From assembly GCA_016194445.1 (NCBI GenBank), contig JACQBP010000016.1, positions 1 through 49,399 of the forward strand: a stretch of 49,399 nt of DNA, read 5' to 3'. The stretch's first letter is position 1, and each line of letters starts with the position of its first letter. The notes below the pieces were generated by a model. That model did not search any database. It saw only the letters and a list, made by a program, of their open reading frames with translations, and was not told the origin of the DNA. The stretch is from Candidatus Liptonbacteria bacterium. Its GTDB lineage: Bacteria > Patescibacteriota > Minisyncoccia > UBA6257 > 2-01-FULL-56-20. The position numbers and the translations under genes were made by a program. Positions 9,845-49,399 of this stretch are shown here, in pieces.

Positions 9845-10387
9845 ATGAATAAAGTTTTAGGTATTATTATCGTTTTGATTCTCATTGGAGTGGGTTGGTT
9901 GATAGTTTCTAACCGTACCGCCTCCAATGAATCAAATCGCCAAGCACAATCTTCGCCTGCCAGTCAGACAACCGAAAAAACGCCTGATTTTGCTTTGCAA
10001 GATTTTGGTGGCAAAACAGTACGTCCAGCGGATTTTGCCGGAAAATCTCTGGTAATAAATTCCTGGGCAGTATGGTGTCCATTCTGCCGCAAAGAGTTGG
10101 TTGATTTTGTAGCCGCACAAAAAGAATTCGGCAACAAAGTGGTTATTATTGCCGTTGATCGAGCAGAGACACGAGATGTGGCAAAAAAGTACGCTGATGA
10201 CCTAGGAGTTACCGATGGCCTTATCTTTCTACTCGATCCGTCGGACAGCTTTTATCAATCAATCGGCGGTTTTTCGATGCCGGAGACTATTTTTGTCGAT
10301 CAAAAGGGTTTAGTGGTAGATCATAAGCGCGGGCCTATGGACATAAACGAAATGCGTACAAAAATTGAAAAACTTTTGCCCAAATAA
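9845..10387 (+). CDS. membrane-anchored TlpA-like thioredoxin
   Basis: 180 aa with an N-terminal TM helix and a WAVWCPFC motif. Confidence 0.85.
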   Translation: MNKVLGIIIVLILIGVGWLIVSNRTASNESNRQAQSSPASQTTEKTPDFALQDFGGKTVRPADFAGKSLVINSWAVWCPFCRKELVDFVAAQKEFGNKVVIIAVDRAETRDVAKKYADDLGVTDGLIFLLDPSDSFYQSIGGFSMPETIFVDQKGLVVDHKRGPMDINEMRTKIEKLLPK

Positions 10388-10391
10388 GGCT

Positions 10392-10571
10392 ATGGTTAAA
10401 ATCATAAAAAATAACAATAAGGAATTATATCAGTGTGAAGAATGAGGTTTGAAATATGAGAGTAAAGAAATTGCGGTGAGATGCCAAGCGTGGTGCAGCG
10501 AGCACAAAAGTTGCAACCTCGACCTGATTAAATATGCCGTGAAGGAGTCTCCAGATAGCACAAAAAAATAA
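10392..10571 (+). pseudogene. mini zinc-ribbon/redox ORF interrupted by a single in-frame TGA (10443-10445)
   Basis: MVKIIKNNNKELYQCEE*GLKYESKEIAVRCQAWCSEHKSCNLDLIKYAVKESPDSTKK. The TGA replaces the second Cys of a CxxC knuckle. Confidence 0.4.
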
Positions 10572-39715: not shown

Positions 39716-40029
39716 GAGTATATTTATGACTTCGCTCGAACCTACTTTATTAAAAATCTCTGACCAAAGGAAGCCCTGCCTGCCGGTAGGCAGGCGCCCC
39801 GCCGCCGCTCGCTAACGCTCGCCCCACCAAAGAAAAGTTTTGTTTGCGGTTTTTGATTTGCGCGCGACCATTTTTTCTTCTAAAAGGAAAACAAAACTTT
39901 TCTTTGGTGTTCTGCTCTAAACGAGCAGGCGGCGGGACTGGCCTCTATTTTTGCTCGGGCGCGGCGGAATTCCCCCCACACCCCCCCTTCCGCCGCGCCC
40001 TCGCGCGATTAGACAAAAGTTGGTAGGTG
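39716..40029. repeat. left arm of the inverted repeat bracketing the AT-rich operon (about 101 bp of homology plus two palindromic insertions)
   Basis: The reverse complement aligns to 44905-45007 at about 90% by hand alignment, once 39775-39940 and 39958-40003 are removed. Confidence 0.85.
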
Positions 40030-40039
40030 TTATAGAGAA

Positions 40040-41449
40040 TTATAATCCCCTTCGTATTACCTTCGGTCCCGCAGAAGTGTCTCTAACCTCATACCCCTTT
40101 TTAATGATCTCTTGACGAACACGATCAGATTCCTCCCACTTATTGTCTTCTCTTAAATCTTCTCGTTTTTGAACAAGCACCCTAATTTCTTCTGGAATTT
40201 TCTCGGAGAGGAGATATCCAAGATTCAATCGTAAAACTTTATCAAACTCAAGAATTGCCGCTTTCTTCTGGGGGGTGAGAGGAGAATCAGCAATTTTCCA
40301 TAACAACGCAATCGCTTGAGGAGTGTTAAAATCATTGTTTATACAACGCTTGAATTCCTGAAGTTCTTGCTTGTCTGGAGAAACTTTTTTATTTCCAAGG
40401 ATAGAAACTTTTTCCCGAAGCGAAAGCAGTGCTTTCTGGGCTCCCCGCAAGCTAGGCCATGTAAAATTAAGGCCTGCGCGATAGTGAGAGGTTAGAACTA
40501 GATAGCGGAAAGCGAGTGGGTCATACCCACGATCCACGATGTCTTGTAAAGTAACAAAGTTATGCTCACTTTTTGCCATCTTTTTTCCATTGACCGTTAA
40601 AAAGGCTACATGCATCCAGTAACGCACGAATTGTTTTCCCGTAGCCGCTTCTGATTGCGCTATTTCGTTGGTATGATGAACAGGAATGTGATCAATGCCG
40701 CCAGTGTGAATATCAATTGTCTCTCCCAAATATTTCATGGCCATGGCACTGCACTCAATGTGCCAGCCAGGGAATCCAATTCCCCAAGGACTTTGCCACT
40801 CCATCTGTCTCTTTCTGTCTTTAGGAGAGAATTTCCAGAGCGCAAAATCAGTTATTTTATTTTTTTCTCCGATATCTACTCGAGCACCCGGCTTAATGCC
40901 TGCAACACCTAATCGCGCGAGATGCCCATAGTTGGATAACCGAGAAGTGTCAAAGTAAACACCATCAGAAGTCAGATAAGTATATCCAGCTTTCTCGAGC
41001 CGTTGAATCAAAGTAATTTGTTCACTGATATGGTCTGTAGCTTTGCTCCAAACAGAAGGGGGTTTAATGTTGAGAGCAAGGAGATTTTGCTTGAAAATCC
41101 CGGTGTATAATTCGGCAATTTCAAATGCAGAACGTTTCTGTTTCCGGGCACTCAACTCCATTTTGTCTTCACCGGAATCAGCATCAGATGTTAAATGGCC
41201 AACATCTGTTATATTGATCACCTGTTTGACTTTATACCCATTAAACTCAAGTGTGTTGCGAAGGACATCCGCAACAATGTAGGCGCGAAGATTCCCGATG
41301 TGCGGATAGTCATACACCGTAGGCCCGCAGGTGTACATTTTAACCCTGCCAGGCTTAAGCGGAACAAATAGCCGCTCCTTTCTCTCATATGTATCAAAGA
41401 GATAAATTGAGCCCGATACGCTCTTTCTTTTTTTCTGATTTATGTTCAT
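40040..41449 (-). CDS. cysS: cysteinyl-tRNA synthetase
   Basis: 469 aa with HIGN, KMAKS, the zinc ligands CGPTVYD / WHIECS / HHTNEIAQSEA, and the DALR-2 region. Confidence 0.9.
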   Translation of the reverse strand: MNINQKKRKSVSGSIYLFDTYERKERLFVPLKPGRVKMYTCGPTVYDYPHIGNLRAYIVADVLRNTLEFNGYKVKQVINITDVGHLTSDADSGEDKMELSARKQKRSAFEIAELYTGIFKQNLLALNIKPPSVWSKATDHISEQITLIQRLEKAGYTYLTSDGVYFDTSRLSNYGHLARLGVAGIKPGARVDIGEKNKITDFALWKFSPKDRKRQMEWQSPWGIGFPGWHIECSAMAMKYLGETIDIHTGGIDHIPVHHTNEIAQSEAATGKQFVRYWMHVAFLTVNGKKMAKSEHNFVTLQDIVDRGYDPLAFRYLVLTSHYRAGLNFTWPSLRGAQKALLSLREKVSILGNKKVSPDKQELQEFKRCINNDFNTPQAIALLWKIADSPLTPQKKAAILEFDKVLRLNLGYLLSEKIPEEIRVLVQKREDLREDNKWEESDRVRQEIIKKGYEVRDTSAGPKVIRRGL

Positions 41450-41454
41450 AAATA

Positions 41455-42252
41455 TTATTCAATTATTTCTCTTCTTTTGAATTTACAAAAAAACATAATC
41501 ATAAACCTATTTTTGGGCAATAAAATATCAATAATTCTCCCTATTGTTTTAATCATCCAGCGAGGAGATTCTAGCGGCAGAGGACTGCCAAAATACTCTA
41601 TTTTGAGCCATTCAATATTCTTCCCACTTCCTTCGGCGGCATTTATCACTAAATCGGCTAAGATTCTATTTTTGTAAAAATGTTCCGTTCCCAATCTATA
41701 ACCCGATATAGGGCCAGGGAAAAATTTTAACACCCACGCTTTAATAGTGGGTCCAGAATAGAAATTCGGTACCCCAAAAGTGATGATTCCATCGGATTTT
41801 GTAACTCGCATCATTTCTTCTAGAATCATTTTGATAGCTGAAGGCTTATAGTGCTCAATGACACCTGTATTCCATACAAAATCAAAAGTTTCTTTTTGAA
41901 ACGGTATTTCGAATATATTACCAATCACAAATTTTACATCCTTAACTTTGAATTTTTGGGCTATATGTTTTGCATATTCTAGGGCTGCCGGAGATATATC
42001 AAGTAATGTTCTATCAATATTACCGCGAAGAAGAATTGAAGATCTTCCTGAACCGCTTCCTGCCTCCAGTAAACTGGAATACTTGTACTTGTTAAATAAA
42101 GATTCCACAAAACTGGTAATTTTTTTATAGTAATCTTCATCCCAAAAGGACGAAAAATTACTTCGGCTTTTATTCCTTTTGTTAAGCTTATTCTCAAATA
42201 TATTATTCCAAGAATCTCTTTCGTGCTCTATTGTCTTCTGCAAATCTTCCAT
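41455..42252 (-). CDS. class I SAM-dependent methyltransferase
   Basis: Motif I LLEAGSGSGRSS and post-I/II motifs (DFVWNTGVIEH). Confidence 0.8.
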   Translation of the reverse strand: MEDLQKTIEHERDSWNNIFENKLNKRNKSRSNFSSFWDEDYYKKITSFVESLFNKYKYSSLLEAGSGSGRSSILLRGNIDRTLLDISPAALEYAKHIAQKFKVKDVKFVIGNIFEIPFQKETFDFVWNTGVIEHYKPSAIKMILEEMMRVTKSDGIITFGVPNFYSGPTIKAWVLKFFPGPISGYRLGTEHFYKNRILADLVINAAEGSGKNIEWLKIEYFGSPLPLESPRWMIKTIGRIIDILLPKNRFMIMFFCKFKRREIIE

Positions 42253-42261
42253 ACTATTGGG

Positions 42262-43143
42262 TCAGGTTAAACGATTATTGATTATTTTTAATCTCTCTTG
42301 AAAACTCTTAAATTTTTCTGGTTTGTCAGACAAAAGACGCTCAAATAAATAAATTATTTTTCTTACACTTGCATCATCTTTCAATTCCTTATTCAGATTA
42401 GCAGGAATAACAAATTTTTTCAGTTCCGGGAAAACCGCTTCCAAGAGTCCGACTTTTTGAAGTTTTTTAATAAATAAATAGCGGTTGCTAGATTTAATGA
42501 TCGCTTGAAGTATATTAAAGTAGGCATGCTCCCGAGCGTAAACACCGTGAAAGTAATCCTTGTGCCTCCAAGATTTTATCTTTTTTGACAAGGCTTTTAA
42601 AAATGAAAAAAGATTTTTATCTTTACAAAAATCGACATTGAAACGAGTGCAAAGATTAACCAATCTCGATGCTAAAATAAAAGGATTCTCTCCGTTAATC
42701 GAAACGATCGGCGCTAATTTTCTCTTTCTTAAGGATTCAATAGAATCATATGGATCGTATATCCTGCCAGATGGAAAATGCCAAAATATACTTTCCCAAT
42801 TAAAATGACCTAAATAATTAATATCTTTAACAATCCCTATGTCATAACGAATCGATTTTTTAGAAACTATGATTTGGAATACTTTGTTAAACTTTAAGTA
42901 ATAGGAACGACTTTTAATGATGGAGAATCTCCGGGACTTTAAAATTTTCAGAACAGACCTAAATTTTTTTATATCGCCGATGATAGCCAAATCGTAATCA
43001 TTAACCTCAAAATTAACACCTAAATCTTCAGCAATTTCTTTGTAGGTAATACTGCCGCCAAGCCAAAAATCATTTAAGCCGCTTTCTTTTGCTATGCGTT
43101 GGAGAATAAAGAACTGCTTTCTATTGACATGGGTAATACTCAT
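42262..43143 (-). CDS. hypothetical protein (weak GGS...DYD nucleotidyltransferase-like motif)
   Basis: 293 aa. WLGGSITYKEI...NDYDLAIIGD resembles a Pol-beta/CCA-enzyme head motif, but the spacing is longer than the canonical one. Confidence 0.6.
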   Translation of the reverse strand: MSITHVNRKQFFILQRIAKESGLNDFWLGGSITYKEIAEDLGVNFEVNDYDLAIIGDIKKFRSVLKILKSRRFSIIKSRSYYLKFNKVFQIIVSKKSIRYDIGIVKDINYLGHFNWESIFWHFPSGRIYDPYDSIESLRKRKLAPIVSINGENPFILASRLVNLCTRFNVDFCKDKNLFSFLKALSKKIKSWRHKDYFHGVYAREHAYFNILQAIIKSSNRYLFIKKLQKVGLLEAVFPELKKFVIPANLNKELKDDASVRKIIYLFERLLSDKPEKFKSFQERLKIINNRLT

Positions 43144-44808
43144 TTATTTTTAAGAGTGCGGAAACTAATCAGCTGGCTTTTAAGTTTATCCACTTCATTT
43201 TTGACATGCTCGGAATTCGCGTGAGGTGAAACAAGACAATATTTTAATGCAGATACAGCTTTGCCAGATTTTGTTTTGTAAAAACCTTTCGAGAACGAAC
43301 AGCCCAATCGACTGATATCTCCGCTATTACTTTTGAGACAAAATTCATAAAACGACTTTACTTCTTCATTAAGATGGTCCAGTAATTTATCATCTCCACT
43401 AACAGATGACAGAAACTCTTTCCAATTAATTCTTTTATTACCGGGAGATAGTAAAACCATAGTGTTAAATCCCAATGCGTGAGGATTCCCTACTAAAAAA
43501 TAATCCCCCTCAGAAATTAAATCTCTAAATACTTTTGTACAGAAAATTTGATTTGCAAGTAATCGCCTAAAGCCATTCTTTCCCATTACTAATAGTGAGC
43601 CTACGGCCGAAAGAGCTTTACCTGCGGAGCGAGATGTTTCCAAAGTGATATCTGAGGGATCTTCCAAAGACCAATCGTTGCCGAGATGGTGTGTATCAAT
43701 GCCTCTTTCCTTTTTAGAGAGCAGGAGCAGATCATTACTATTGTTTGAAACAAAAAGACCACACGGTGTTGGACAACCGCCCAATCCCTTGTGAAAATCT
43801 ACTCCCCACGAATCGGCCTTTCTTACTTGATATTTTCTTTTGAACTGTTCCTTGATGATGGGTAATATTTCCGCTGGAATTTTTAGAGGATTTAATTCAA
43901 AGTCGTATCCATTAAACACCAGCCAAATCCATCCGATGACAGAATCAACGTGAATGTGTGGAGAAAAAGAAAGGTTGTACTCTTTTATAAGCCTATCTCT
44001 TAAATCTATAAACGCGCCAATATCATCAATTGCAAAATCATAGAATGGGCCCCCGTTTATTTGAAATCCAGCAATGACTCCGCCCTTTTCAATTATAGAT
44101 CTTGTTTTTATCTCTGCGTCTTCAATGATGGACCTGCTTTCTTCGTCTGCTTTGATTTGCACTAAACGGTCGATGCCTATGCCAAGCCAATCTCCAACCG
44201 TTTTATGAGAGAAGTGGGCGTTGGCAGTAATCATGACGTGCAGGTTAGAAGGAGCGCCAATCTTTCCTGCGTTAGGGACAGCATTATTGATAGCAAGTTT
44301 CATGGCATACATGTTCGAAGCTGTTCCCCCAAAAGAGAATAGCGCCCTAACTTTGTCTTTGGGCAAATCTATGAGATCAGCCATCATTTCGGAGATAACT
44401 TTCTCCGCAAGCAAGCAAGCAATTACCCGCAAAGTCGGTACTTATGTTATGGATATTGATTTCTTGGCCCAAACTTAAAAGAGCCTGTGCAACTGCATTA
44501 ACTGGAGCACAGATGTTATATTGCAATTCTGGACTACGCCAATTTGGTGCTCCAGGAAGGAATTTTTTAATCGTTTCGGATATTACGTCGTTAGGATGCA
44601 TTCCATCGTCTGGAATTTTATTCGGAATTTTAGTATCGTTATCTGGTGATTTAGGAATCCACGGCTCACTTGAATTCTTGAAAACTTTCCGCAATGTTTG
44701 AAGACCGAAATTAAAAAGCTTCGAGGATGTTTTAGATCCAATCAAAGGCGGGAACAAGAAATCTATTTGTCTTTTATGGGCAGAGTTCCATAAGTATTTC
44801 TTTTTCAT
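43140..44808 (-). pseudogene. group II PLP-dependent amino-acid decarboxylase, reading frame broken inside a (GCAA)4 tract
   Basis: N-terminal 143 aa lie in the 44808 frame and the remaining 430 aa in the 44432 frame. Motifs are FGGTASNMYAM, HIHVDSVIGW and VDFHKGLG (the PLP lysine). Removing one 4-nt unit gives ...FAGNCLLAEKVISEMMADL. Confidence 0.8.
44407..44422. repeat. tetranucleotide repeat (GCAA)4, which is (TTGC)4 on the coding strand
   Basis: Read directly: cGCAAGCAAGCAAGCAAtt. Confidence 0.9.
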
Positions 44809-44904
44809 ATTCTGGTTCGAAAAATTTTTCGTCTGAAGCGTCTATGATTTTAGGATACATCAAAAACGATGAAAACTCAATATTAAAATTAAGGACGGTT
44901 CATA

Positions 44905-45007
44905 CACCTACCAACTTTTGTCTAATCGCACGAACAAAAATAGAGGCGGCTTCCTTTCGTCAAGAATTTTTGATAAAGTAAGTTCGAGCGCGGTCGTAAA
45001 TATACTC
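44905..45007. repeat. right arm of the inverted repeat bracketing the AT-rich operon (empty-site version)
   Basis: CACCTACCAACTTTTGTCTAATCGC... is the reverse complement of 40005-40029, and the homology continues to 45007. Confidence 0.85.
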
Positions 45008-45011
45008 CAAA

Positions 45012-45142
45012 ATTAGACTTTCCGATTTTTGACCGACGAATTCGTGGGCGGCACAAAGTGCCGCCCGTTGGTTTTCTGGCGTAGAATCAGAGCCGCTTGG
45101 CGCGCGGAAGCGCGCCTCGCGGTTGGCCAAGACGAGGTTCGA
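45012..45142. repeat. left 131-bp inverted repeat with two GC hairpins (45046-45066, 45099-45116)
   Basis: GGGCGGCAC-AAA-GTGCCGCCC and GGCGCGC-GGAA-GCGCGCC. Confidence 0.85.
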
Positions 45143-45166
45143 AATCCCTTGCGGTTTCGTATTTGT

Positions 45167-45196
45167 TTGCCCAACAGAAAGAATTTTTGCTATAAT
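45167..45196 (+). promoter_or_regulatory. candidate promoter of the recombinase gene
   Basis: TTGCCC, an 18-nt spacer, then TGcTATAAT. Confidence 0.45.
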
Positions 45197-45304
45197 GACA
45201 ATGTAACCAATCCCGCAAAGTTGTCTTTTTTGATGGCCGTCTCAGTCAGTTCAAGGCAACTTGGATTGGTTACAACCGGGGCGGCCTTTAAAGTTTTCAA
45301 ATTT

Positions 45305-46367
45305 ATGGATAATCTATCGCAAAAATTCTTTTTGTATGCCCGCAAGTCCACTGATGTGGAAGATAAGCAGGTGCGTTCTATTGAAGACCAAATTACAGAA
45401 TTGCGCGCCTTTGCCAAACAAGAAAATCTCAACATTATTGATGAGTTGATGGAGAAACAATCAGCCAAAATTCCGGGCCGTCCCATTTTCAACGATATGC
45501 TCAATCGGATAGAGAGTGGCGAAGCAAACGGAATTTTGGCCTGGCATCCTGATAGATTAGCGCGCAATTCTGTGGACGGTGGACAAATAATTTATCTTTT
45601 GGATTGCGGGCATTTGGCGATGTTGAAATTTCCCACATTTTGGATGGAAAATACCTCACAAGGAAAATTTATGCTCAACATCGCCTTTGGGCAAAGCAAA
45701 TACTACGTGGATTCTCTTTCTGAAAATACCAAAAGAGGGTTGCGCCAAAAAGTAAAACGAGGCGAATATCCAAGCCTTGCGCCTGTTGGATATATCAACG
45801 ACTCGCGCAATAAATCTGTTGTCGTGGATAAAAAGCAAGCTCCGGTGGTTCGCAAGGCTTTTGAGCTATACGCGCAAGGCGATCAAAGACTGGAAGATAT
45901 TGGAGAATTTTTGGCGCAACACAAATTAGTTTCAAAAAGCGGAAAGAGAATCCACATCTCAAGAGCGACTTTTATCCTCTCCAATCCTTTTTACACCGGA
46001 CTATTTCGCTACACTGGCGAAATCTACGAAGGCAAGCACGAGCCAATCTGCTTTTGTTCAAACAAACCAAGAAAGAATCAAAGTCATTGCCACTAAACTC
46101 CAGCGACTTCTTGATGGCTACTTGGAACAGGATATTGACCGAGAAATCTACCGCACCGAAAAAGCAAAACTCCTTTCCGAAAAGAAGTCGCTGGAGGAGC
46201 AAATGACCAATCTTGAACAAAAGCAGAATGGTTGGCTCGAACCTGCGTCTAGCCAACCGCGAGGCGCGCCTCTGCGCGCCGAGCGGAGAGGATTTCCCCC
46301 CCACAAAACCAATGGGCGGCACGAAGTGCCGCCCACCGATTCGTCGGTCAAAAATCGGAAAGTCTAA
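45305..46367 (+). pseudogene. large serine recombinase with an intact catalytic N-terminus but an internal deletion plus frameshift
   Basis: MDNLSQKFFLYARKSTDVEDKQVRSIEDQ... is the catalytic Ser region. After ..GKHEP (about 46045) the zinc-ribbon region seen in the 20531 copy is missing. The coiled-coil part (..KLQRLLDGYLEQDIDREIY..WLEP) continues in another frame. Confidence 0.75.
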
Positions 46368-46368
46368 T
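46238..46368. repeat. right 131-bp inverted repeat with two GC hairpins (46263-46280, 46314-46334)
   Basis: GGCGCGC-CTCT-GCGCGCC and GGGCGGCAC-GAA-GTGCCGCCC. The stems are identical to the left copy and the loops differ. Confidence 0.85.
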
Positions 46369-46637
46369 CCTGGAGCGGGTTTGTGAAGGACGTTAGAACT
46401 TTTTTCACTTCCCCAGATTCTGCATCCGAGAAGATGGCGACATCACTTCGTCAGGTTTTGGGTAAGCCGGTCATCGCTGATTCACTCTAAGGGTAGCTGA
46501 TTCTTGGCTTGTAACAAGAGGCTGATTCTTGTCGGTTGCGACAGGTTACGCGCCCACAAGAATCAAGACTGGGCCCGGAGGTCGTTCCTTCGGCATGCGG
46601 CATTGCCGGGCTTTCCCCGAGCTTGTTGATCACCGAT

Positions 46638-46787
46638 CTAGTTGAACAGTCTGGTGACAAGGAGAAGAGCAGCGAGTGCAAGCGCAATCACCAATGCCGC
46701 CCACCCGTCTATCTCTACGGTGATCCGGCTTTTCCCGAGGGACTCGGACTTAAGAACTCTGATCGTCGAACTTTTCTTGGGCTTCAT
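46638..46787 (-). CDS. 49-aa ORF with a C-terminal TM helix (not in the ORF track)
   Basis: MKPKKSSTIRVLKSESLGKSRITVEIDGWAALVIALALAALLLVTRLFN. ATG preceded by GAGAGGAAAT. Confidence 0.35.
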   Translation of the reverse strand: MKPKKSSTIRVLKSESLGKSRITVEIDGWAALVIALALAALLLVTRLFN

Positions 46788-47338
46788 ATTTCCTCTCAGT
46801 CATAGCTCTCGCGGAATCTTAGAGCCAAGTGTCAATTTCGAGTGTCCTCACGCAGGCGCCGAAATTCCCGGCTCATTTGAGAACACGTGTTCAAGTCCGA
46901 CGGGAAGATCCGCTCGGCACCATAAACCGAAAAGGGTCAATATGTCAGGTGTCGTGGCGGTGAGAGTTCGCCACCTATGCAGGCCCACGCAACGAAGCTG
47001 AAGATCTCTCAACTTCGAGCAGCTAGCTATACGCTAACCCATCGGCGAATTGTTGTCAAGCCAGGGGTTCTTCTGGGAAGCGAATTCCAAACGAATACGT
47101 AACTCAATCCGAGAGTCGGTATTTCCACAGAGATTTTTAACAGCTAATCTGACAGAGCGAGGTCGGATCTTGTTGGTCCCCTCGGTCGGGGTGTGGTTGT
47201 CCGTTCCGCAAGATTAGAGTGCGGACACTCTGCCTAAGATTCGGCCATCTGAAATGTGGCACGACTTGCGTTGAGGAGCGTGATCTGCGAGGAGACTTAT
47301 GGCCGAGTTGACGAAGAGTTCTCGGCGGAGCGGGCTCG

Positions 47339-47950
47339 TTATCTCTTGAGCTGGCGCGTCCAGCGCAAGCAATACTGCTCTCCGATCATTGGTGCCGTGA
47401 TATTCCACGATATGCGGTTTCTTGCCAGCGCACGAGGTCCTTGGGCGGGATGCTTCGTGGAATTGCCAAAGGACACGTCTCCGTGGAAGTCACTTAACTC
47501 CATATTCGAAGTACCTTGGATCTCTATCAGAGCTGAACGGGTAGTCTTTGTGACGGTAAAGACAATATCCTCTTTGTCCTGGAGATACGAGTCGAGGAGG
47601 TCGCAGTTCCAGTCTCGCGTGAAAAACGCCTCGCATGGTAGAGGGTCTTCAAAGACCGTGGGTATTGCGTACGCCCCGCCACGCTTTTCCTTCCGGCCAA
47701 TATCAACGCGCCCTGGGTGGGATTCCATGCTATCCCAGTCGATCTTCCCGTTGTCGTCGGCGCGAAGATGACGGTCCCATATCTCCCTGATTCCCTCTCG
47801 GTGTGCGACAAGGACGTGGTGCTTCTTGAAAGTAACGCGGTGTCCAGCGTCATCCTGATAGATCACTTCAATCTTGACGTTATGTACAGTGTACTCGCGC
47901 TCATTAAGTTCACTGTCCCACCTGGGACTGGCCAGAACTCCGCCCGACAT
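47339..47950 (-). CDS. hypothetical protein (203 aa)
   Basis: ATG 47950 (MSGGVLASPRW...). The upstream extension of the track ORF reads into the IS terminal repeat and is discarded. Confidence 0.5.
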   Translation of the reverse strand: MSGGVLASPRWDSELNEREYTVHNVKIEVIYQDDAGHRVTFKKHHVLVAHREGIREIWDRHLRADDNGKIDWDSMESHPGRVDIGRKEKRGGAYAIPTVFEDPLPCEAFFTRDWNCDLLDSYLQDKEDIVFTVTKTTRSALIEIQGTSNMELSDFHGDVSFGNSTKHPAQGPRALARNRISWNITAPMIGEQYCLRWTRQLKR

Positions 47951-47974
47951 GATCCGATTGACATTTGACGCTAG

Positions 47975-49289
47975 CAGGTTGCTGAAAAAACCCTTGTGAC
48001 TGCTGTCCCATCCTTCTTTTCGCCGATTTGCATCGGATGGTGGTCTGACCCGGCGGTTTTGCGTCCGTTGATGTGCTGGTTTTCGTTCCGCTGACGCGCC
48101 GTCCACTTCTGATCATCAGGTCGGAATTGGTTGCGGACACAGCTTCGCCATGCGCAGCAGCATGTGGGCGACCACTGTCAGCTTGGTGTGCAAGGTCACG
48201 CGCTCGGCGCCCCGATAACGGGTCCGGCGCAATCCGCCCACCGTCTTCAGCCACCCGAAGCCTTCCTCGATGCGCTTGCGCACCCGCTGGCTGAGCGCAT
48301 AGCCGATACTCCGCGTCGTGCGCCCGTCCAGTCCCGGTGTCCGCCGGCCCTCCACCATCGCGATGTGCGGCGTGATACACTGCAACCACAACGCCTCGAC
48401 AAACGCCTTCGTATGGTATCCCTTGTCCGCCCCGACCGAGCGCGGACAGCCGCGCCGTCGGCGTTGGCACTGGAGCAACGCCAGCGCTGCCTCCCGCTCT
48501 CCCGTTCCCGTGGGGTCATGCACCTTCACATCGACGATCAGGCCGTGACGGTTCTCCATCAAGAGCGATACCCCGTACGACAGCTTCGCTTCCTTGCCCG
48601 CCCCTTTGCGCGCCAGTCGGGCGTCCGGATCCGTCGTGCTGCGGTGTGTCTGGTTGGTGCGCGTCTGCCCATGGAAGTCCACGGTCACGTTCCCCGGATC
48701 GTCGGCGTCAACACCCTGATCGGGCGCGTCGGTGGGACGGAAACTCTTCAACGACGCCCACGCCTCCACCAGTGTCCCGTCCACTGTGAAGTGCTCATCG
48801 GATAACAGCCCCGCCGCCTGCGCCCGCGTCACCACCGCCTGCAAAAACCGCCCCGCCACGTCATGCTGCAACAGACGGTCCCGGTTCTTCGTAAACGTCG
48901 TCGCATCAAACGACCGCTCCTCCAGGCTCATCCCCAAAAACCACCGAAACAGAATGTTGTAGTCCAGCATCTCGCAGAACAGCCGCTCCGAACGGATCGT
49001 GTATAGGGCGATCAGCAGCTGCGCCTTCAACAGCCGCTCCGGCGGAATCGACGGACGCCCCTCCTTCGCGTACATCCGGTCAAACGTCCGGGACAACGAC
49101 CCCAGCGCCTCATCCGCCATCGTCTTGATTCGGCGTAAGGGATGGTCCTGAGGCACCCGCTCCTCCGGCGACAAGTAGCTGAACATGTATCCCTGATTCT
49201 CCTCGCGACCCCGCATCGCACCCTCCTCGGCTGATGGCCATCACGATCACCATACCGCCACCAACCAGCAAGGGTTTTTCAGCAACCTG
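47975..49289 (-). mobile_element. IS5-family insertion sequence (1315 bp)
   Basis: Terminal inverted repeats CAGGTTGCTGAAAAAACCCTTG (47975-47996) and CAAGGGTTTTTCAGCAACCTG (49269-49289). Flanks are CTAG and GTAG. A single DDE transposase ORF. Confidence 0.8.
48116..49216 (-). CDS. IS5-family DDE transposase
   Basis: 366 aa. The N-terminus ...YMFSYLSPEERVPQDHPLRRIK..LFCEMLDYNILFRWFLG is typical of IS4/IS5-superfamily (DUF772) transposases. ATG preceded by GAGGAGGG. Confidence 0.9.
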   Translation of the reverse strand: MRGREENQGYMFSYLSPEERVPQDHPLRRIKTMADEALGSLSRTFDRMYAKEGRPSIPPERLLKAQLLIALYTIRSERLFCEMLDYNILFRWFLGMSLEERSFDATTFTKNRDRLLQHDVAGRFLQAVVTRAQAAGLLSDEHFTVDGTLVEAWASLKSFRPTDAPDQGVDADDPGNVTVDFHGQTRTNQTHRSTTDPDARLARKGAGKEAKLSYGVSLLMENRHGLIVDVKVHDPTGTGEREAALALLQCQRRRRGCPRSVGADKGYHTKAFVEALWLQCITPHIAMVEGRRTPGLDGRTTRSIGYALSQRVRKRIEEGFGWLKTVGGLRRTRYRGAERVTLHTKLTVVAHMLLRMAKLCPQPIPT

Positions 49290-49399
49290 GTAGGCGTTGA
49301 ACACGGAGGGATTCAATCAGCTGAGGCGCTGATGCTGGCACGACATTTCATGTATTCACAAGTGTACCTCCATCCGGTTCGAAAGAGCTACGATTTTCA

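Follow-up and report, generated by a model that had tools for sequence, protein, structure and literature searches.

What kind of element encloses a serine-recombinase gene between two long inverted repeats, each carrying two GC-rich hairpins? The question is raised by a 49,399-nucleotide stretch of contig JACQBP010000016.1 from a “Candidatus Liptonbacteria” bacterium (hereafter the window, meaning the whole stretch that was analyzed), in which an earlier note had described such a gene and its repeats (here called the left and right arms) and had suggested that selection acts on their structure. Comparison with related loci places the arms in a family of elements from the Patescibacteria, or candidate phyla radiation (CPR). 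Family-wide arms, covarying hairpins, a position at the ends of tRNA genes and a dead copy in the window make up the descriptive core of this report, which we hold with very high confidence. The best explanation of the whole, toward which the balance of probability tips modestly, is that the unit forms the integrase module of a small island that inserts at tRNA genes, the copy in the window being dead.

The inverted repeats are real. A repeat search of the window recovered them in two blocks, one of 82 nt (45005-45086/46294-46375; 85% complementary) and one of 50 nt (45093-45142/46237-46286; 82%), which pairwise alignment joins into one unbroken repeat of ∼140 nt. Global arm-to-arm alignment gave 83% identity, in line with the ∼80% estimated earlier. 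The outer 30 nt, said to be identical, are nearly so: 29 of 30 positions match, the mismatch being a T at 45042 versus C, and none of 100 shuffles matched likewise. Hairpin 1, GGGCGGCAC-NNN-GTGCCGCCC, has just two copies in the window and none in 100 shuffles; hairpin 2, GGCGCGC-NNNN-GCGCGCC, is found in the two arms, nowhere else in the window and never in shuffles. Stems are conserved and loops differ, as had been observed (left versus right, AAA versus GAA on the plus strand in hairpin 1 and GGAA versus CTCT in hairpin 2). Both arms fold better than shuffles (z = −3.6), and a consensus scan marked the left-arm hairpin as terminator-like on the plus strand.

Arms of this kind are a family trait. 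A search with the N-terminal 248 residues of the window recombinase (E ≤ 1e-3) returned more than 3,254 protein relatives, the named ones from Patescibacteria/CPR (Harrisonbacteria, Falkowbacteria, Daviesbacteria, Moranbacteria and Peregrinibacteria), and a scan of one genome per GTDB species gave at least 595 recombinase loci, nearly all in CPR and many at contig ends. A profile built from the window arm found a plus-strand arm upstream and a minus-strand arm downstream of the gene in at least 48 loci, again nearly all Patescibacteria/CPR, with a median outer-to-outer span of 1,801 bp (48 loci). The recombinase open reading frame (ORF) is intact in 43 of the 48 two-arm loci (at least 470 aa, mostly 500 to 565 aa), and in the two closest relatives (L001, 95%; L002, 92%) a left arm bearing both hairpins precedes the gene. 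The earlier note had allowed that the repeats might be a functionless local inverted duplication specific to the window, which the absence of repeats at intact homologues would indicate. The state of the window copy, a pseudogene with arms just 83% identical, is compatible with such an origin; the same arms, with covarying hairpins, were found around mostly intact genes in 48 loci of many CPR lineages, which refutes it, and we regard it as almost certainly wrong.

By its sequence, the family enzyme is a member of the large serine recombinases (LSRs), distant from all curated subfamilies. The family has the full LSR architecture of Resolvase, Recombinase and Zn_ribbon domains (in L037 and L028, Recombinase at E 6e-15 and 1.5e-16 and Zn_ribbon_recom at E 8e-8 and 4e-7, respectively), and the columns R13-K14-S15-T16 and D83-R84-L85-A86-R87 are invariant in the family alignment (A2). 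The best relative of solved structure is the A118 integrase (4KIS; E 4e-9). Every NCBIfam match lies far below the family cutoff; these include weak matches to CcrB and XisF and a match to IS607 that covers ∼80 residues of the catalytic core only (E 8e-8 to 4e-4). IS607 TnpA has an N-terminal, MerR-like DNA-binding domain, a C-terminal catalytic domain and no terminal inverted repeats (PMC6188088). The present unit resembles IS607 in being a small element with a serine recombinase as sole mobility gene; here, in contrast, the catalytic domain lies at the N terminus and arms of 135 bp are present, and an IS607-type transposase was rejected on the reversed domain order and the inverted arms. Viral contigs contributed one relative among 2.9 million.

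The unit at 45005-46375 of the window is a dead copy of this family, unable to act alone. Its ORF is 92 to 95% identical to relatives P0001/P0002 and matches Pfam Resolvase (E 2e-21; residues 9 to 154, including YARKST) and Recombinase (E 1e-8), with no zinc-ribbon match. Relative to L002, L003 and L004, 362 bp are gone after 46046 (junction 46046/46047), and the zinc ribbon was therefore lost and the frame shifted, which accounts for the earlier description of a frameshifted recombinase that keeps its catalytic part. A further 104 bp are gone between two 10-bp direct repeats, GGCTCGAACC, that lie 104 bp apart in L002, L004, L018 and L023; this deletion joined the right arm, at its inner end, directly to the WLEP codons. 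The right repeat does begin inside these codons in the window, as had been pointed out, but as a secondary deletion of a dead copy and not as a design feature. The 1,371 bp of the window unit plus 466 bp of deletions equal the length of its relatives. The adjacent tRNA-Gly gene is decayed; its remnant was identified by alignment with the tRNA-Gly genes flanking L002, L003, L006, L010 and L020, and ARAGORN calls no tRNA at the site. The closest relatives of the window copy sit at tRNA-Gly genes. The copy is a decayed relic from which no activity is expected.

Read from outside to inside, the arm consensus consists of NNCCA, a conserved stretch of ∼35 nt with GACTTTC, hairpin 1 (a 9-bp stem with a 3-nt loop, ∼39 nt inward of CCA), (A)TTGnTTTT directly after it, hairpin 2 and an inner end, (G/C)AGGTTCGA, which holds the most conserved columns, including GGTTCGA. 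Covariation was counted on 56 distinct arms. In hairpin 1, 96% of cells are paired and 6 of 9 pairs have changed on both sides; in hairpin 2, 80% are paired and 5 of 7 pairs have changed on both sides. The covariation score of 0.371 compares with 0.125 in shuffles, none of which reached it (0 of 500), and with 0.03 to 0.12 when the partners were slid. Stem variants of hairpin 1 comprise GGGCGGCAC, GGGCGGCGC, GGGACGCGC, GGGCGTGCC, GGGCGTTGC and GGGTTTTGC, with a compensatory change, GGGCGGCGC/GCGCCGCCC, in L001. This covariation argues that the stems are under selection for structure. The suspicion voiced in the earlier note is in this respect borne out by the family, whereas comparison within the window did not by itself reveal such selection. 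The spacers between the hairpins, whose divergence had been read as a sign of it, do differ, but not through drift: the left spacer is L001-like and the right one L004-like, so the two window arms come, by this comparison, from different sub-lineages.

Whether the hairpins act as DNA, in a cruciform, or as RNA had been left undecided, and the family favors an RNA read inward, a cruciform being less favored. Where stem 1 is prolonged by a further four to six positions, G·T or T·G juxtapositions number 92, as against 11 for A·C; TTTT follows the stem within 12 nt in 26 of 56 arms, and AAAA precedes it in 5 of 56. Because G·T exceeds A·C and the T-run has a polarity, the hairpin is read as RNA transcribed from outside inward, forming a terminator-like element that faces out at each end, an assignment that we consider fairly probable. 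Alternatively, the hairpins could act as cruciforms or as sites at which the recombinase or an accessory protein assembles the synapse, in the manner of res subsites. The arm length of ∼135 bp is similar to that of a res site, roughly half of the arms have a weak U-tract, and the high conservation of GGTTCGA, together with its recurrence in the tRNA T loop and in a repeat beyond the left arm, suggests protein-binding motifs ∼155 bp apart. Yet stem sequence varies freely as long as pairing is kept, which is unexpected of a sequence-specific protein site, and the tolerance of G·T but not of A·C, with the polarity of the T-run, points to a transcript of one strand. A DNA-level role in place of a terminator thus seems quite unlikely, although the two roles can coexist. 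No credible Rfam match to the arms was found at E up to 10, and only tRNAs reach the threshold in the window.

The right arm has a coding role as well. The recombinase ORF contains no stop codon inside the unit; it passes through the right arm and ends in flanking DNA, antisense to the tRNA. Length differences among arms are multiples of three, and 54 of 56 arms are in the same phase. Because indels keep the reading phase, the right arm is, on this sequence criterion, genuine coding sequence for the last ∼45 residues (…FGSNL…W.ALRA.H…ILV/ILE). The left arm is noncoding, yet it tracks the right arm in sequence: identity within one element has a median of 97.7% (at least 98% in 19 of 40), as against 59.6% between elements. 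In L002, L053, L115, L173, L174 and L032, the two arms belong to different subfamilies and are 53 to 74% identical, compared with the usual ≥95%, and the window pair at 83% is a mild case of the same condition. From such pairs, arms can evidently be exchanged between elements.

The outer end of the arms is tied to tRNA genes. A complete tRNA gene on the opposite strand, as called by ARAGORN, adjoins the right arm in 37 of 46 loci, with 22 isoacceptors represented. Gene and arm overlap by 5 nt, the last five of the tRNA (N72, N73 and CCA) being the first five of the arm, and left-right identity within an element reaches through the two bases before CCA and ends there. The bases at positions 72 and 73 vary with the kind of tRNA, being CT for Gly, Cys and Thr, AG for Asn, TA for Glu and CA for most others. 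Because variants of CCA (CCG in L006, CAA in L024 and CCT in L030) occur on both sides of the same element, the sequences indicate that the element supplies tRNA positions 72 to 76. The left arm adjoins a real tRNA in five loci. The motif GGTTCGA appears in the inner end of the arm, in the T loop of the tRNA and, just outside the left arm, in a promoter-like repeat that we call X. GTTCGA precedes CCA by 25 nt in X and by 21 nt in tRNAs; by analogy, this 4-nt offset recalls the zinc-ribbon motif shifted between the attP and attB half-sites of LSRs, which is only a lead. The idea of a palindromic crossover dinucleotide (AT) at a constant place just within the arm agrees with many lineages; it was rejected because the L035, L037, L040, L045 and L099 types do not conform.

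X adjoins the left arm in 33 of 49 loci and points into it. Its consensus is …TGATAAAAT-NN-GTTCGAGC-N6-GTAAAGAnA, followed directly by NNCCA; the window copy has an extended −10-like TGATAAAGT (44971-44979), GTTCGAGC and GTAAATA just before CTCCA. From its TAAAGA/TATAAA box, the 3′ part of X looks like a promoter, with a start expected near CCA. Further upstream, X runs for 120 to 330 nt with GC-rich hairpins and a ∼20-bp stem with compensatory changes. X is also a high-copy repeat in CPR metagenomes (loci L083 to L202, and the window), 70 to 330 nt long; its 3′ end is constant, and its reach in the 5′ direction varies. When metagenomes were scanned for the core of X, at least 115 distinct sites were obtained. 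Among the 115 sites listed, 23 continue into a full or partial arm and ∼90 lack an arm; 7 precede a same-orientation tRNA gene within 60 nt, often ∼5 nt after GTAAAGAcacac; 13 are followed by a terminator-like hairpin (one of these ahead of a convergent tRNA); 4 more have just a convergent tRNA after them, and the remaining 68 have other sequence, ORFs included. X as a mere part of the 1.8-kb unit was rejected on the ∼90 listed copies without an arm, and X as a known RNA (tmRNA or RNase P) was rejected after ARAGORN returned nothing and Rfam (E up to 10) nothing credible. X may be a mobile promoter cassette, an island end or both. The right flank of the window was also considered as another X copy; this was rejected in favor of the decayed tRNA-Gly.

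Remnants of the unit also occur beside X. Six deletion derivatives (L093, L125, L129 at 1,247-1,275, L130, L137 and L188) have X followed merely by the first 13 to 25 nt of the arm. In L137 (reverse complement, 50-150), the right arm is kept from hairpin 1 to the tRNA and the gene is gone. In such derivatives the arm terminator appears, from sequence, to be retained after loss of the recombinase.

In all 33 genome loci and all 16 metagenome loci examined, X comes first, then the recombinase, then the tRNA. This constancy bears on the idea of an invertible switch, in which the arm/flank junctions would be inversion sites comparable to hix and gix and the recombinase would flip the segment that carries its own gene. 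Invertible segments of the Hin/Gin/Cin type have a small invertase, 26-bp sites and an enhancer. The likeness lies in the geometry, with mirror-symmetric inverted sites around a serine-recombinase gene. Both states would be expected across many genomes, however, and a single orientation was found in all 49 loci; the enzyme is an LSR with zinc ribbon and coiled coil rather than a small invertase with a C-terminal helix-turn-helix, and nothing outside the segment would change with orientation. A switch is therefore very improbable. Swapped polymorphisms suggested an inversion between L028 and L158; this was rejected, the gene having the same orientation in both.

A second X, here X′, often lies 1.4 to 6 kb upstream and, where present, is always inverted (13 inverted, 0 direct). 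Of 24 loci for which 3.5 kb or more upstream could be read, 11 have it, as do 4 of the 4 with more than 5 kb. X and X′ are 95 to 100% identical in most loci (85% over 60 nt in the window), and their identity ends 0 to 3 nt after CCA. X′ terminates in an identical NNCCA, which forms a direct repeat, only 5 nt long, with that of the tRNA. Beyond X′ lie terminators, convergent tRNAs, same-orientation tRNA genes or host ORFs; between X′ and X lie unrelated, variable genes, in at least 13 loci besides the window. The window X′ matches the long form of X in L003, L018, L028 and L031 and stands 135 nt upstream of a sigma-factor gene (39581-39045), on the same strand and pointing toward it.

These observations can be assembled into an account of integration whose steps we infer as follows. 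The ∼1.8-kb unit would serve as integrase module for a small island that inserts itself at tRNA gene 3′ ends. As attachment site, the island would use [X promoter]-NNCCA-[terminator arm], of which two inverted copies would enclose the recombinase gene; the copy on the 5′ side (X and left arm) would stay intact, and the copy on the 3′ side would recombine with a tRNA gene. Crossover at or beside tRNA positions 72 to 76 would yield two junctions, tRNA-NNCCA-arm and, at the far end, X′-NNCCA-host DNA. The arm hairpin would end the tRNA transcript ∼39 nt after CCA, replacing the terminator that the insertion had separated from it, and in the right arm it would also block antisense read-through into the recombinase gene; the left-arm hairpin would stop transcription from X. 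Outward-facing X′ would restart transcription of downstream host genes, and insertion, bringing a new terminator and an outward promoter, would do the host little harm. The arms would be kept identical by concerted evolution under the constraints of a protein tail, of RNA hairpins on the opposite strand and, presumably, of recombinase binding.

Several lines of evidence accord with this account. First, the island model accounts for the fixed orientation, the inverted X′, the direct NNCCA repeat, the match of positions 72 and 73 to the tRNA and the host-like sequence beyond X′. Second, two inverted site copies are proposed because a single exchange of a circular 1.8-kb element cannot give mirror junctions through NNCCA. 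The exception would be a palindromic crossover dinucleotide, and none occurs at a fixed position in all lineages. For the mirror symmetry, an attachment site in two inverted copies is a better match than classical terminal inverted repeats. We give an island with a duplicated attachment site about an even chance. In the window, the proposed island spans 39716-46375, with X′ as its left end and attL-type junction, and the segment 40001-44942 would belong to the element. A wider set of proposals, namely, that these LSRs recognize a generic tRNA 3′ end (T-loop GGTTCGA plus positions 72 to 76), that positions 72 and 73 are the crossover dinucleotide, that CA, CT, TA and AG lineages are matched to their tRNAs, that a low-harm module supplies the last 5 nt, a terminator and an outward promoter, that the site is present in two inverted copies and that leader helices (see below) control the recombinase, is offered as one joint statement, and a tentative one, whose correctness we rather doubt.

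The arms could instead be the transposon ends of a free-standing insertion sequence (IS). The 1.8-kb unit would then move alone, a circle with joined arms being the palindromic donor site, and would insert centrally between converging tRNA-like 3′ ends (tRNA/tRNA, X/tRNA or X/X), with X as an independent mimic of a tRNA end. Many copies at contig ends and the truncated arm remnants beside X are in keeping with such an IS. Mirror symmetry through NNCCA, on the other hand, is incompatible with one conservative exchange at a nonpalindromic central dinucleotide, and an IS leaves unexplained the invariant orientation in 49 of 49 loci, the inverted upstream X′ and the match of positions 72 and 73 to the tRNA type on both sides of the element. 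The position at tRNA ends, the tRNA and X flanks and the mirror symmetry together make transposon ends probably the wrong description, and we regard a free-standing IS as unlikely.

Other observations weigh against the tRNA-integrating island, and some of them fit the IS better. Similarity between related elements ends at the inner edge of X, so that the part conserved between loci is X plus the 1.8-kb segment, and no shared cargo marks the borders of an island. X stands alone far more often than beside an arm (∼90 of the 115 listed sites), which is not expected of a simple one-to-one island and agrees with an X that is abundant in its own right. L019 has real tRNAs on both sides and no X. In L091 (∼10,340-10,400) and L114 (∼1,890-1,960), two X subtypes converge with 8 nt between their CCA ends (CTCCA AAATTTCT TGGAG); the junction is the same in two samples with different outer flanks and has nothing between the copies. 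It resembles an empty palindromic target of the IS and could be an empty or joined attachment site. Five pairs of elements in the same metagenome-assembled genome (MAG) are only 67 to 74% identical, which gives no hint that they moved recently. Neither an excised circle nor an empty site nor an insertion polymorphism was found, nor was any pair of loci sharing both flanks with and without the element among 204 sequences (203 loci and the window). No clear LSR-type dyad symmetry was seen around the arm/flank junction. Finally, roughly half of the arms have a weak U-tract after hairpin 1 or none at all, and the promoter role of X and the terminator role of the arms are read from sequence alone.

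Several described systems share features with the unit. LSRs of phages and integrative elements (A118/LI, Bxb1, phiC31 and TP901-1; CcrA/B of SCCmec; XisF) have the same order of Resolvase, Recombinase and zinc ribbon with coiled coil, and here, as is usual for integrase genes, the gene lies beside the junction with the host target. The att half-sites of phage-type LSRs measure 40 to 50 bp and have weak symmetry, whereas the present arms are ∼135 bp and near-identical; unlike those LSRs, the family ORF has no stop of its own and ends in the flanking tRNA, and the proposed site is present twice, inverted. The junction types X-NNCCA-arm, tRNA-NNCCA-arm and X′-NNCCA-host are compatible with an attP × attB system, the parts not found being the dyad symmetry of such a system and its crossover. 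LSR-driven mobile elements such as Tn4451/Tn4453 (TnpX) and Tn5397 (TndX) can use several targets. They have short imperfect end repeats, a GA crossover directly repeated at the ends and no tRNA link; none of these features was seen here. Ty3 and Dictyostelium TRE5 target tRNA genes generically, via RNA polymerase III factors. They offer an analogy only, in that the GGTTCGA of the flanks is the T-loop (B-box) sequence; the enzymology is unrelated. In genomic islands and prophages that occupy tRNA or tmRNA genes, attP restores the 3′ end of the gene, and the integrases are mostly tyrosine integrases, as outlined in PMC12884075 (citing Williams 2002, Islander/TIGER). The likeness here is an integrase gene beside a tRNA gene whose 3′ end the element supplies (37 of 46 loci). 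The present family departs from such islands in having a serine recombinase, in restoring only 5 nt, in using at least 22 isoacceptors rather than one specific tRNA and in having a promoter-like repeat, rather than a displaced tRNA fragment, at the far end.

Full-text literature searches found no description of the element or of its long arms, in keeping with the earlier remark that such arms are unusual for serine-recombinase elements. New in combination, it would seem, are a serine recombinase associated with many tRNAs, near-identical 135-bp arms that combine coding, terminator and tRNA-end sequence, an ORF that ends in a tRNA, and an inverted site that would be present twice and is partnered by a promoter-like sequence.

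Between the left arm and the gene, the window has a promoter-like site whose TGCTATAAT box is conserved in L001 to L004, L021 and others, followed by a leader with two interleaved long helices that is shared with L001-L004, L006, L021, L023-L025, L027, L043, L066 and L072. Covariation in the leader was judged from per-sequence duplex energies; a column-based count was dropped, MAFFT misaligning the hypervariable helix. Helix A is hypervariable in sequence yet always complementary (cognate −30.4 versus noncognate −13.8 ± 4.4 kcal/mol; 12 loci), and the conserved helix B (12 to 14 bp) shows G·U pairs and compensatory changes from CG to UA. Because only 2 nt lie between A′ and B′, the helices probably alternate instead of forming a compact pseudoknot. 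A second leader subfamily (L017, L030, L035-L037, L041 and others) has the same topology and unrelated sequence; no credible Rfam match to the leader was found at E up to 10. In one subfamily, a structured insert of ∼340 nt lies between the left arm and the recombinase start (L020, 1122-1455; equivalent place in L022, L024 and L032), with a promoter-like box of its own and several GC hairpins; no Rfam family matches it at threshold.

The coordinates of these features are collected in Table 1. To the left of the unit, GC content is 0.32 to 0.40 at 41 to 45 kb, versus ∼0.45 elsewhere. This low-GC segment holds a gene resembling pyridoxal phosphate (PLP)-dependent decarboxylases (43140-44808, minus strand), with a weak match to Pfam Pyridoxal_deC; it appears split into two overlapping ORFs (43140-44432 and 44377-44808) and is probably a frameshifted pseudogene. 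To the right, in 46440-49399, GC climbs to 0.52 to 0.64 immediately beyond the decayed tRNA-Gly. This region has ∼900 nt without a convincing ORF, a 255-aa ORF without a Pfam match (47339-48106, minus strand) and an IS5-type DDE transposase with DUF772 and DDE_Tnp_1 domains (48116-49216, minus strand), and it is either foreign DNA inserted beside the element or a product of chimeric assembly.

Table 1. Positions of the unit, its parts and the proposed island in the window
Feature	Position	Strand	Details
X′	39716-40000	-	Inverted long-form X (GC-rich hairpins and core); nhmmer with X profile, E 1.8e-12
Putative island cargo	40001-44942	.	cysS-like gene 40040-41449, methyltransferase-like ORF, unknown ORF, PLP-decarboxylase-like gene
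X, short form	44943-45004	+	Profile match, E 3.2e-18; ends against left arm
Left arm	45005-45146	+	CTCCA (tRNA positions 72-76) at 45005-45009
Left arm, inner parts		+	Hairpin 1 45046-45066, then GTTGGTTTTCTGG; hairpin 2 45099-45116; conserved GGTTCGA 45136-45142
Promoter-like site of recombinase gene	45167-45196	+	TTGCCC, 18-nt spacer, TATAAT, upstream TG; 10/12 matches
Leader helix A	45202-45223 with 45257-45274	+	∼21 bp
Leader helix B	45233-45241 with 45280-45288	+	Within leader 45202-45288
LSR pseudogene	45305-46096	+	ATG 45305; catalytic and recombinase domains intact up to EGKHEPI, then out-of-frame tail to stop
Coiled-coil coding remnant	46049-46236	+	Frame of ORF 46122-46367; stops at 104-bp deletion junction GGCTCGAACC (46234-46243)
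Right arm	46237-46375	-	Reverse-complement GGTTCGA 46237-46243; reverse-complement CTCCA 46371-46375
Right arm hairpins		-	Hairpin 2 46263-46280; hairpin 1 46314-46334
Decayed 3′ part of tRNA-Gly gene	46371-46410	-	Acceptor 3′ strand and T arm, 5-nt insertion; last 5 nt = right-arm end

The Patescibacteria/CPR represent a large and poorly understood part of bacterial diversity, for which few mobile elements have been described and few genetic tools exist. The present element is a widespread, apparently undescribed mobile element of these ultra-small bacteria, and its recombinase family is among the most widespread in CPR, with its more than 3,254 relatives and at least 595 loci in species-representative genomes. 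In the annotation of CPR MAGs, such units account for many contig breaks, calls of “truncated recombinase” and odd ORFs that run antisense to tRNA genes. The architecture would show how an element enters a tRNA operon with little harm, and one 135-bp repeat, kept identical at both ends, would be constrained in three ways: as the code for a protein tail, as an RNA hairpin of the opposite strand and as a site of recombination. If the reading is true, an LSR that natively uses the near-universal tRNA end would have target sites in nearly every genome, with no need to install a landing pad beforehand, and would be of direct interest for integrase-based genome engineering.

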